Shown here piece by piece: positions 38,181 to 41,177 of a DNA stretch of 41,177 nucleotides. How positions within the stretch are numbered: the stretch's first letter is position 1; each line of letters begins with the position of its first letter. Location of the stretch: the IMG/VR virus record IMGVR_UViG_643886067_000001, positions 1 to 41,177 of that record. One strand, given 5' to 3'. The notes under the pieces were generated by a model. The model was not told the origin of the DNA. It did not search any database and worked only from the letters and a program-made list of their open reading frames with translations. Made by a program: the position numbers and the translations under genes. The DNA is from a virus (lineage: Duplodnaviria; Heunggongvirae; Uroviricota; Caudoviricetes).

Positions 38181-38510
38181 TTACAGGGAAGCAGCTTCAG
38201 CTATAGCTGATACACTATCAGTATAATAAGGAGCAAGTCTGGCAACGAGGACATTCAACCTGGTAAGGCGCCCAAGCGTTGTACTGAAATATCCATTATT
38301 CATCTGGTATTTCTCGCAGACATCTTTACGGGAATGACCACTGACCAGATAATCCTTCATAGCGAGAATAACTCTGTCACTGTGAATAGAGGAAATACCT
38401 ATCAGTAAAAAAAATTGTTCTTCAGACATGGAGCCGGATGACAGCGCGCTCTCACGTAATTTTAGTAAAAAAGCATCCCCTCCCCGGGTAATAACTTCAT
38501 GCTGTGCCAT
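38181..38510 (-). CDS. PapB/SfaB/FocB-family fimbrial regulator
   Basis: 109 aa MAQHEVITRGGDAFLLKLRES...FFLLIGISSIHSDRVILAMKDYLVSGHSRKDVCEKYQMNNGYFSTTLGRL closely matches PapB-family pattern. Confidence 0.8.
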   Translation of the reverse strand: MAQHEVITRGGDAFLLKLRESALSSGSMSEEQFFLLIGISSIHSDRVILAMKDYLVSGHSRKDVCEKYQMNNGYFSTTLGRLTRLNVLVARLAPYYTDSVSAIAEAASL

Positions 38511-38625
38511 TCGATACTCCCCACCCCGCCACCTACAGGGCTGCCTTAATATTCATCCCCCATACAGGAGGGCCTGGCTCCTTAAGATATATTTAGTTTT
38601 TTATGTTGTAAACATGTATTTTGAC

Positions 38626-38731
38626 GATCTTTTGATCTGTAAAGCTGTTTATTTTTAGGGTTACATCTTGCAATGGATTAGTGTTTTAGTGATTAATGCT
38701 GCATAAGAATTAATATTCAGTATAAAAGATC
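38626..38731. promoter_or_regulatory. Pap-like Dam/Lrp phase-variation switch (two GATC sites 102 bp apart)
   Basis: GATC at 38626-29 (acGATCtttt) and 38728-31 (aaaGATCgtt) in the intergenic region between divergent papB-like and papI-like genes; further GATC at 38634 and 38858. Confidence 0.6.
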
Positions 38732-38928
38732 GTTAAAATCGTTTTTTGCAACGTTCCTTACCATTGAAAAAACTATAAAAATAATGTGATAGAAATCCAA
38801 TCGTGAATATGTTTCGCATATTAAGTAAATACACCAAATACAATATAAAAACATGATGATCACATTTGAATTGTCAAAAACAAGTCAGCCACTTATTATC
38901 CTTTTGCTTATATAGAGAGGATGATGAT

Positions 38929-39150
38929 ATGCAGAATGAAATAATGGGTTTTCTGAGCAGACATAATGGAGGGAAAACCGCAGAAATTGCGGAGGCGCTG
39001 GCGGTAACGGATTACCAGGCACGCTATTACCTGTTATTACTGGAAAAAGAAGGTATGGTTCAGCGCTCTCCGTTAAGACGAGGCATGGCAACATACTGGT
39101 TTCTGAAAGGAGAGATGCAGGCGGGACAGAGCTGTTCTTCCACAACTTAA
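38929..39150 (+). CDS. PapI/SfaC/FocI-family fimbrial regulator
   Basis: 73 aa [61 protein letters not shown]; GAGGA upstream. Confidence 0.8.
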
Positions 39151-39424: not shown

Positions 39425-40003
39425 CTACGAACTGAGACTGTCTGTCCGGGGAGAACATACGTAACCCGGCGCAAGGCTCCTGTCAATTACCTCCGGCCTC
39501 TGCTCCCTTGGTTGCCAGACAGAGTCTCTGACGACCATGCTTTCAGTGTCAGCGCCAGTGATATAAGACGGTAAATGGGGATGCGGACGATTTCCTGTAT
39601 CACGTCTGTTGGCGCTTAGCCTCAGAATATCCACCACCAGACGCTGACTGTCTGACCAAAACAGGCCGTTCAGTGCGATCACCTGCAATCCCGTTTCCAG
39701 CGCATACTTCAGTCGTTCACGGGGCGCTTTCACTTCCCGGGCAATTTGCTGCCATGGCGATGATGTATTTTCACTCCCAACCATCCGGCGAATACGATGA
39801 GACAGATGATACCGGAATATATCCGGCACACCAGAAAGACTGGCTTTCAGGCTGTACACGCAGCCAAACCGTTTATCGTTGAACACCACATTTTTCTGGC
39901 TGATATCCCATGCTTCCCGAAGTGTAACAATCAGCTGTGGCGTCCGGGTTAAAAGCAGACGAAAAGGCAGTTCAAAACTGGTGACGTAATCCACATTCAG
40001 CAA
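39425..40003 (-). CDS. Hypothetical protein, possibly distal fragment of a disrupted gene
   Basis: 192-aa ORF; out of frame with the ORF at 40236-40748; no family recognised. Confidence 0.3.
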   Translation of the reverse strand: MLNVDYVTSFELPFRLLLTRTPQLIVTLREAWDISQKNVVFNDKRFGCVYSLKASLSGVPDIFRYHLSHRIRRMVGSENTSSPWQQIAREVKAPRERLKYALETGLQVIALNGLFWSDSQRLVVDILRLSANRRDTGNRPHPHLPSYITGADTESMVVRDSVWQPREQRPEVIDRSLAPGYVCSPRTDSLSS

Positions 40004-40235
40004 TGTAATATGCAGCCGTTCTTCTGCCCCGCCTCAGTCTGCCGACACTCCTCCAGGACATCCTGCCACTGCTGGCGAAGACGTGAGGATTAATTCCGCC
40101 AAGGTAAAACAGTATTTATCCGCCATAGAGTCAATTCGTGTACACATACTGAAAAGAATTCCGTATAAAGATTCAGCAGACAAAACTTTATCAGTCTGTA
40201 AAAATTAACGGAAGAGTTGATATTTCTCCCGATCA

Positions 40236-40748
40236 TCACCGGATAATTGTTGCAATAACCAGTGGCATCAGAGACTGAACAGCTGTTTTTAACGCAACGT
40301 ATTGCTCTGATGTATCAGGCCGGGTAACCCGAAAACACCTTTCCACCCGACATTGTCCGCCAGCGTTTATCCCCCGCCAGGCCTGCTGCAGTAAATCCAC
40401 CACTTGCGAACATTCTTCATCAACTGTGGCACTGACCCGCAGATGGCAAATGCTCGCCTGGCTGAGCAGCAACAGGCATCGTATTGTTGCTCCTCCATGT
40501 TGTTCCCGCAACCAGCGTAATACCACCGGCGGTGCTGGACTGGCAGTGTGATTACGCTCAGTAATATGTTCTTGCACCTGTCGGTAAAAGGCAGTACAGA
40601 ATGCATGAATCTGTTGCCCGTTGATGTTTCCTTCTGCCGAATGGAGTGTGAAGTAAAATGCCAGCAAATGCGGCCAGTGGTCCACCGCCTGCTGAACAAA
40701 ACGCCGGATGTCTCCCGGCTCTGAAATTAAGGCTTCGGTTATTTGCAC
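40236..40748 (-). CDS. Hypothetical protein, possibly proximal fragment of a disrupted gene
   Basis: 170-aa ORF; followed by a 230-nt gap then a second ORF in another frame. Confidence 0.3.
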   Translation of the reverse strand: MQITEALISEPGDIRRFVQQAVDHWPHLLAFYFTLHSAEGNINGQQIHAFCTAFYRQVQEHITERNHTASPAPPVVLRWLREQHGGATIRCLLLLSQASICHLRVSATVDEECSQVVDLLQQAWRGINAGGQCRVERCFRVTRPDTSEQYVALKTAVQSLMPLVIATIIR

Positions 40749-41177
40749 GAAATCTTCCTTTTCAAACCCTGTTGGATTTTGTCAAGCCGGTGCAGACACA
40801 GTAAAGCGCGCATCAACACCTGAAAGGTACGATACAAACACAAGTTACAAACAATAAGAACGGAAGGACAATTAATCAGTGAGGAATAATAACTAAATTA
40901 ACCAAAAGAATGTTACTGACAATACCACCAATACTTAAATAGCAATATATTAATTAATGTAAGAACAGATGCCCGGTAAGACATATACACAATACATCCA
41001 CAAACACACTCTTTTCATTAAATAAATCACCTGATTAAACCATGAAAGTGTGATGTAAGTCAAAATTACTGACACAATCAATTGATAATGATTATCTCTA
41101 TCATTATCGTGATATTCGAGAATGAAAGGAGAAGTAGTCATTATAAGCCTTTTATAAATCGTCATCATCATAGTAAA

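Follow-up and report, generated by a model that had tools for sequence, protein, structure and literature searches.

The AT-rich end of a serX-island sequence probably joins an attR-type island repeat to the Fur-repressed promoter region of mcmT

The final 428 bp (positions 40750–41177) of the 41,177-nt stretch of DNA analysed here (the window; IMG/VR record IMGVR_UViG_643886067_000001) very likely consist of two joined pieces: an attR-type repeat from the end of a genomic island, and the Fur-repressed promoter region of the gene mcmT. The left piece would be a repeat that many CP4-like islands also carry at their empty integration sites, and the right piece would belong to the microcin island and be the control region of mcmT. 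In the mechanism proposed, when iron is present Fur-Fe2+ would sit on positions 41078–41108, over the –35 element, the spacer and the –10 element, and RNA polymerase would be blocked; under iron limitation the promoter would be freed and mcmT expressed in response to the signal to which the Fur-controlled genes mchB–F also respond. The exact position of the mcmT transcription start is something that we infer, and the same would hold for a function of the other 190 bp of AT-rich DNA.

Origin of the window and genes around the segment

The window originates from the serX pathogenicity island of E. coli CFT073/Nissle 1917. Positions 40200–41177 were 100% identical to the corresponding DNA of CFT073 (NC_004431.1, 1184845–1185822, reverse strand), Nissle 1917, ATCC 25922, clone D and other B2 strains. 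According to the CFT073 RefSeq annotation, the genes for F1C fimbriae and those for microcins H47 and M both lie inside the serX island. Coordinates were converted using the CFT073 region with its flanks (L001), the window position being L001 + 32199, and that in the NC_004431.1 record being 1193822 – L001 + 1. A search of a phage collection gave no match, and a plasmid search matched only Escherichia records, several of which exceed 1 Mb and resemble mis-binned chromosomal DNA; that the segment belongs to a phage or a plasmid is improbable. The features to which the analysis refers are as follows (window coordinates).

foc/sfa, minus strand: F1C fimbrial operon (CFT073 RefSeq annotation)
38181–38510, minus strand: sfaB (CFT073 RefSeq annotation)
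38866–39150, plus strand: sfaC (CFT073 RefSeq annotation)
39425–40003, minus strand: frameshifted pseudogene of the ECs1377 family
40236–40748, minus strand: 170-aa gene, C_RS05795, 'hypothetical' in RefSeq and elsewhere named Inovirus Gp2 family protein (ORF list and annotation)
40714–40886: attR-type imperfect direct repeat, ∼41% GC (aligned with the attL side of 042 and that of O111)
Between the 170-aa gene (minus) and the 152-aa gene (plus, start 41206): divergent spacer of 457 bp (CFT073 annotation)
40887–41205 (40887–41177 within the window): island-internal AT-rich region upstream of mcmT, ∼29% GC
40950–41171, minus strand: ORF of 73 aa (78 aa if begun at a GTG beyond the window), the only one of more than 50 aa in the segment
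41078–41108: Fur operator of 31 bp, made of three 19-mers in 6-bp phase
41078–41096, 41084–41102 and 41090–41108: the three Fur-box 19-mers (14/19, 17/19 and 15/19 matches, respectively)
41082–41110, plus strand: predicted sigma-70 promoter of mcmT (consensus scan)
41206 (L001 9007; 29 nt past the window end), plus strand: start of C_RS26585, 152 aa, three transmembrane (TM) segments

The segment thus makes up most of the divergent spacer. On its left, the 170-aa gene begins at a GTG (position 40748) preceded by the ribosome-binding site AAGGAAG; searches of Pfam and NCBIfam with its product returned no family, and the gene is also found in the CP4-like island backbones of XDL, O111, Sakai and 042. 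On the other side, past the window end, the gene order in CFT073 is C_RS26585 (152 aa, plus strand), a gene for a 228-aa CPBP/Rce1-like membrane protease (plus strand) and mcmA, and it continues with mchF and a gene for a HlyD-family exporter on to mchB. A small ORF upstream of, and overlapping, mcmA is taken to be mcmI.

The island around the spacer is a mosaic with IS-mediated truncations and pseudogenes. A boundary of the large island, or of an IS element, was considered for this position and rejected: IS-type terminal repeats are absent, and the serX island runs on at both sides.

Composition of the segment

The segment had been singled out from the letters alone as strongly AT-rich, rich in short repeats and devoid of any credible long ORF. 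The first of these claims was borne out: its GC content is 32.5%, compared with 50.0% for the whole window, and only 0.23% of all 428-bp windows have a GC content that low. The sole other tract in the window that is equally GC-poor is the sfaB–sfaC spacer (about 38450–39076). Within the segment the GC content is uneven, at 41% in positions 40749–40882 and 28.8% in 40883–41177, the attR-type repeat corresponding to the less AT-rich first third.

The absence of a credible long ORF was likewise upheld. The longest, of 73 or 78 aa depending on the start, had no family match in Pfam or NCBIfam; its frame is broken in the diverged copies of GPEC1165 and 22AH104, and it was judged spurious. When the window was extended into CFT073, no conserved gene was found to span the segment, the next gene in the annotation beginning beyond the window end. 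The 'many short repeats', in contrast, did not stand up to scrutiny: repeated 7–9-mers, direct or inverted, were equalled in 7–37% of dinucleotide shuffles, and a scan for tandem repeats found none in the segment. The one meaningful repeat was a perfect 9-nt inverted repeat, GATAATGAT-N7-ATCATTATC, at 41084–41108. Terminator-like sites were also absent from the spacer, both of those found being located inside the 170-aa gene.

An attR-type repeat forms the left part

As judged by comparison of sequences, positions 40714–40886 are an attR-type repeat, that is, one end of the mobilisable microcin H47/M genomic island. This island has been described as a 12.6-kb element flanked by imperfect direct repeats, attL (148 bp) and attR (144 bp), which are 76% identical; it encodes no integrase and yet excises and integrates, as shown for strain H47 and for plasmid clones (Azpiroz 2011, PMC3191183). 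The same work reported that E. coli 042 carries the whole island, that CFT073-type strains keep part of the microcin genes together with attR, and that hybrid empty sites (attC) are widespread (PMC3191183).

The assignment is based on the repeat pairs present in O111 and 042, on alignment to the attL side of 042, and on the existence of hybrid sites. In 042, two copies of the repeat flank the island (L010, 4046–4152 and 16825–16934) and are 81% identical over 110 bp; the attL side of this strain was 72.7% identical to window positions 40714–40886 over 176 positions. In O111, a repeat pair (L002, 5964–6144 and 9723–9937) flanks a remnant running from mcmT to mcmL. This remnant island, seen in O111 and also in O157, consists of mcmT, an mcmM disrupted by IS1, a shortened mcmK, and mcmL. 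Hybrid empty sites were found in XDL and AR0149, in which the left half is attR-like and the right half attL-like, leading directly into an alpA-like gene; past the repeat, these strains have GC-rich DNA with a small ORF and the alpA-like regulator gene, and they are without the AT-rich tract.

To delimit the repeat, the window was aligned with the attL side of 042 and with that of O111. The first ∼135 bp of the segment, and nothing beyond, matched hundreds of E. coli islands at 74–88% identity, and the homology to generic island backbones ends at about 40882–40886. Of the repeat, 35 bp fall within the start of the 170-aa gene and the other 138 bp lie upstream, where they include its AAGGAAG and presumably the promoter of this gene too. 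No second copy of the repeat (attL) was found in the 34 kb of CFT073 examined, and the attR of this strain would therefore be unable to recombine by itself. The other end of the CFT073 microcin cluster is disrupted by IS elements.

The original prediction had proposed nucleoid-protein-bound regulatory or island-boundary DNA of the kind that adjoins fimbrial islands; the protein with published binding at this site is Fur. As to the kind of DNA, this fits what was found, namely non-coding regulatory DNA that holds an island boundary; as to the island, it does not, since the boundary belongs to the small, nested microcin H47/M island, as given by the attR-type repeat, and not to the foc/sfa cluster or the large pathogenicity island.

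A Fur operator overlaps the predicted promoter of the right part

The best of the three Fur boxes, at 41084–41102 on the minus strand, matched the consensus GATAATGATAATCATTATC at 17 of 19 positions. Allowing up to three mismatches, a scan of the whole 41-kb window returned this one site, 0.01 being expected by chance. The perfect 9-nt dyad GATAATGAT-N7-ATCATTATC is included in the operator. When the copies from CFT073, O111 11128, GPEC1165 and 22AH104 were compared, the block CAATTGATAATGATTATCTCTATCATTATCGTGA was invariant, with flanks that differ by 10–15%. The AT-rich tract as a whole accompanies mcmT in every locus type examined, with 85–98% identity in O111, O157, GPEC1165 and 22AH104. 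A search with the exact 27-nt operator core in one genome per species gave no matches, and the promoter is thus apparently limited to E. coli island lineages.

The predicted promoter consists of a –35 element TTGATA (41082–41087), a 17-nt spacer and a –10 element TATCGT (41105–41110); it lies beneath the Fur operator, ∼96 nt ahead of the mcmT ATG. Promoter-like sites in the region were not above the level seen in shuffled sequences in the consensus scan, and the choice of 41082–41110 as the putative mcmT promoter is based on its overlap with the Fur box, its orientation and its invariance across the copies.

Two genome-wide studies report Fur at this site. A ChIP-seq peak was recorded in CFT073 at 1184948, with a height of 382, between c1234 and c1235 in the pathogenicity island (Banerjee 2020, PMC7157518, Table S5A); for comparison, the peak heights of mchB and acnA in the same table were 625 and 315, respectively. 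This position converts to window 41074, which is 10 bp from the 17/19 box. A ChIP-exo peak, P42 (CFT073 1184936–1184948), was observed in iron-replete cells only, was classed as intergenic and was assigned to the target C_RS26585 (Gao 2023, PMC10164565, Dataset 2); it converts to window 41074–41086. C_RS26585 is included in the Fur regulon of that study with a log2(fur mutant/WT) of 1.39, that is, 2.6-fold (PMC10164565, Dataset 4). In strain Sakai, the iron-replete intergenic peak P47 was assigned to ECs1374 (PMC10164565); its coordinates (1429214–1429226) differ from those of the operator in NC_002695.2 (1429333–1429357) and probably refer to an older version of the record. Both c1234 and c1235 appear in the ChIP peak table only and are absent from the table of directly Fur-regulated operons (PMC7157518), so Fur regulation of expression at this site rests on one dataset and a modest 2.6-fold change.

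In the reviews consulted, the Fur boxes mentioned are those ahead of mchX and mceX, and the present site is not described. A paper on the TosR regulon and another on the transcriptome after a temperature shift mention mch genes and contain nothing on this spacer; searching the literature under the old locus tags returned no relevant match.

The downstream gene is probably mcmT

The gene that the predicted promoter would serve, C_RS26585, is probably mcmT, as suggested by the agreement in length, number of TM segments, strain and O157 context. McmT was described, in a 2019 review citing a doctoral thesis, as a 156-aa protein with three TM domains cloned from Nissle 1917 (PMC6795089). Read from its first ATG, the extended C_RS26585 ORF specifies 156 aa with three hydrophobic segments. 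The review also reports a McmT homolog in O157:H7, in a region that contains the glycosyltransferase gene mchA (PMC6795089); in Sakai, the homolog ECs_1374 is identical at 146 of 153 positions and lies near the glucosyl-transferase gene ECs_1370. According to the unpublished thesis, as cited in the review, McmT confers resistance to microcins H47 and M (PMC6795089). The review further describes mcmM as coding for a 228-aa protein with seven TM segments, similar to mceF (PMC6795089); we infer the 228-aa CPBP gene to be mcmM, and to be co-transcribed with mcmT.

When searched against Pfam and NCBIfam, McmT had no family, DUF5313 being the only hit and sub-threshold. Relatives were found on a plasmid of Klebsiella sp. 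(59% identity) and in Raoultella lignicola (49%). Both start with MKIYW, which favours the RefSeq start (L001 9007, window 41206). Upstream of these Klebsiella and Raoultella genes the DNA is unrelated and has no Fur box.

Distribution and strain variation

mcmT was present in 1026 of 5426 complete E. coli genomes and mcmA–mcmI in 252; the 428-bp tract was found at a coverage of at least 80% in 1024 complete E. coli genomes. Carriers of mcmT without microcin M include EHEC of serotypes O157, O111, O26, O145 and O103. In O157, O111 and other EHEC serotypes, mcmT is intact, the promoter region is 98% identical and the Fur operator is unchanged, with the rest of the microcin island wrecked. A second locus type, seen in 257 genomes, contains mcmT, a short CPBP gene, and genes for a 321-aa protein, a beta-helix protein and an MFS transporter; it is without microcin genes, examples being 22AH104, GPEC1165 and Nissle-derived assemblies.

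Strain 042 differs by a deletion of 524 bp (L001 8627–9150, from window position 40826 to the equivalent of 41349). Lost with it are the inner portion of the repeat, the AT-rich tract in its entirety, the Fur operator and roughly 48 codons from the start of mcmT, which is annotated as a pseudogene in this strain; the deletion also accounts for the shorter repeat of 042 (∼107–110 bp).

These distributions suggest, tentatively, a further reading: mcmT and its Fur-gated promoter might form a stand-alone 'orphan' module for resistance to siderophore microcins, induced by iron starvation, which we consider possible and somewhat doubtful. The thesis ascribes to McmT cross-resistance to MccH47, MccM, MccE492 and MccV. 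If this is true, O157:H7 and similar strains would hold an iron-induced shield against microcin-producing probiotics such as Nissle. An intact, Fur-gated mcmT that is widespread in strains without microcin M, EHEC among them, offers a testable lead on the resistance of pathogens to such probiotics.

Other explanations for the AT-rich tract

The tract might instead serve mainly for the binding of H-NS/StpA and the silencing of horizontally acquired DNA, with Fur in a secondary role. H-NS prefers AT-rich DNA of this composition, and the tract has a GC content of 28.8% over ∼300 bp in a 50% GC context, including ∼190 bp of conserved AT-rich DNA (40887–41077) that lie upstream of the Fur operator. 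AT-richness by itself, however, is no evidence of occupancy. A literature search on H-NS ChIP and Nissle found no study covering the locus, and Fur is the sole protein whose occupancy has been demonstrated here. H-NS binding is plausible from composition and would supplement the Fur model, not replace it; as the main function of the tract we hold it to be a minority view, though one with some substance.

That the tract is a functionless, decayed remnant of island rearrangements would agree with the mosaic nature of the island, with its IS truncations and pseudogenes, and with the fact that 042 lost the tract yet kept its microcin H47 genes. It is nevertheless very improbable, given that the tract has been kept with mcmT at 85–98% identity across over 1000 genomes and three types of locus, and that the operator is invariant and bound by Fur in vivo (published ChIP). 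Comparably slim are the chances that the tract encodes a small RNA or a structured leader acting in cis. At ∼90 nt, the 5′ UTR predicted for mcmT is highly conserved, but this can be explained by the promoter and the operator. The Rfam search in E-value mode over the spacer and its flanks returned only SNORD11, a eukaryotic snoRNA model, inside mcmT (20.6 bits against a gathering score of 55; E = 0.65), so nothing matched below E 0.65, and a leader or small RNA would also have to do without a terminator-like site in the spacer.

A real small protein gene at 40950–41171, probably the old Sakai gene call ECs1375, is scarcely credible: the ORF is present, the number falls between ECs1374 and ECs1376, and the ECs1375 array probe changed 2.9-fold in spinach lysate, but that signal is equally explicable by the mcmT 5′ UTR, an 11-bp deletion that takes the ATG and a 4-bp deletion that shifts the frame occur in the diverged, otherwise conserved copies, no family was matched, and ECs1375 has been dropped from the current RefSeq annotation.

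Comparison with known systems

Taken as an attR-type repeat joined to a Fur-repressed mcmT promoter region, the segment is made of components already published: attR was reported in 2011, the Fur peak is listed in the supplements to two regulon studies, and mcmT is mentioned in the 2019 review. What is added here is, first, the probable identity of C_RS26585, the Fur target between c1234 and c1235, as mcmT; second, that the mcmT operator and promoter would sit just inside the attR of the island; and third, a difference in the length of the repeat, which in CFT073 and EHEC exceeds that of the H47/042 reference, in which the 524-bp deletion took the promoter and the 5′ end of mcmT.

Like the attR of Azpiroz, the repeat described here is direct and imperfect and lies where the microcin cluster ends on the mcmA/mcmM side; it shares homology with a second copy beyond mchA/mcmL and with the hybrid empty sites of other islands. 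It differs in length, the similarity to the attL side extending over ∼173 bp (40714–40886) in CFT073 and EHEC, compared with the published 144 and 148 bp and the ∼107–110 bp of 042, and in that the CFT073 copy, being without attL, is a relic.

The spacers of papI–papB and sfaC–sfaB, which are silenced by H-NS, are also divergent, AT-rich and located in pathogenicity islands, and the sfaB–sfaC spacer, which lies in the window at a distance of 2 kb, matches the mcmT spacer in composition. The likeness is one of composition and layout: the mcmT spacer has fimbrial genes at neither side, and no GATC (Dam/Lrp) sites, compared with four in the sfaB–sfaC spacer.

The closest parallels are the Fur-repressed promoters of iron-uptake and siderophore-microcin genes, such as those of mchX, mceX and mchBCDEF, with which the mcmT region shares a consensus-type Fur box, here one that would overlap the predicted core promoter, and Fur occupancy in iron-replete cells with derepression in a fur mutant (published data); the Fur-controlled genes mchB–F lie in the same island. 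The present site differs from these promoters in being known solely from supplementary-table entries of two genome-wide studies, and in the modest extent of its derepression (log2 1.39). It also departs from a single 9-1-9 Fur box, the mcmT operator being a 9-N7-9 dyad that arises from three phased boxes.

Carriage of mcmT and of the microcin M genes in E. coli

The distribution of mcmT was compared with that of the microcin M genes, which in the CFT073 locus (L001) lie as follows:

L001 9007-9465, plus strand: mcmT, just beyond the window end
L001 10426-10928: the stretch set against mcmT (mcmA-mcmI)

Among 5426 complete E. coli genomes mcmT was found in 1026, while mcmA-mcmI was present in only 252. 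About three quarters of the mcmT carriers have an intact mcmT together with its Fur-box promoter, yet lack the microcin M genes; these include EHEC of serogroups O157, O111, O26, O145 and O103. mcmT may be an orphan immunity gene. Two arrangements without the complete microcin M system were analysed:

L002 7015-8127 (O111) and L009 27828-28595 (O157:H7 Sakai): reduced microcin island in EHEC
L006 4960-6722 and L007 4960-6393: second mcmT locus type

The EHEC remnant consists of mcmT, an 83-bp mcmM stub, IS1, an mcmK fragment and an intact mcmL/mchA glycosyltransferase gene; this structure suggests that the toxin and export genes were all lost by IS1-mediated deletion. The second locus type, present in 257 genomes (Nissle-derived and ATCC 25922 assemblies among them), shares the attR-like stretch, the AT-rich tract, an invariant Fur operator and mcmT. 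Downstream of mcmT there follow a shortened CPBP gene and genes for a protein of 321 aa, one with beta-helix repeats and an MFS transporter; this locus type lacks microcin genes.

The Sakai locus also bears on an old gene call upstream of mcmT:

L009 29237-29693: spacer between ECs_1374 and ECs_1376

ECs1375, included in the original Sakai annotation and since removed from RefSeq, is placed in this spacer by its number. In an array study it was induced 2.9-fold in spinach leaf lysate. It was probably the spacer's spurious minus-strand ORF, or else the signal came from the mcmT 5′ UTR.

McmT relatives outside E. coli

Two relatives of McmT were found in other genera:

L011 4001-4465: relative with 59% identity, Klebsiella sp. 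WOUb02 plasmid
L012 4001-4456: relative with 49% identity, Raoultella lignicola

Since both begin with MKIYW, the 152-aa start of mcmT is favoured over the 156-aa one. In both cases the upstream DNA is unrelated and lacks a Fur box, and another gene immediately precedes that of the McmT relative.

Neighbouring tracts in the window

window 38511-38865: sfaB-sfaC spacer
window 39425-40003, minus strand: frameshifted pseudogene of an ECs1377-family 'DNA-binding protein'

The sfaB-sfaC spacer, the sole other tract in the window that is equally AT-rich, contains four GATC sites (38626, 38634, 38728 and 38858). A Fur ChIP-exo peak has been reported within it at CFT073 1187315-1187327 (approximately window 38695-38707), in iron-replete and iron-starved cells alike (Gao 2023, PMC10164565). 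Despite this peak, a Fur-box search of the spacer returned zero sites at ≤6 mismatches.

The pseudogene is separated from a 170-aa gene by a 232-bp gap, which is partly AT-rich (37.5% GC over 40100-40299). Window 39425-40235 is a piece of decayed CP4-like backbone, flanked by the foc operon on one side and the microcin islet on the other.

A deletion in the H47-type island of strain 042

L010 4152-4160 (E. coli 042), corresponding to L001 8627-9150: deletion

This 524-bp deletion removed the AT-rich tract and the Fur operator, along with the inner part of attR and ∼48 codons of mcmT. The repeat detectable in 042 is ∼107–110 bp long, compared with ∼173 bp in CFT073 and EHEC; the H47 attachment repeats have been published as 144 and 148 bp (PMC3191183).
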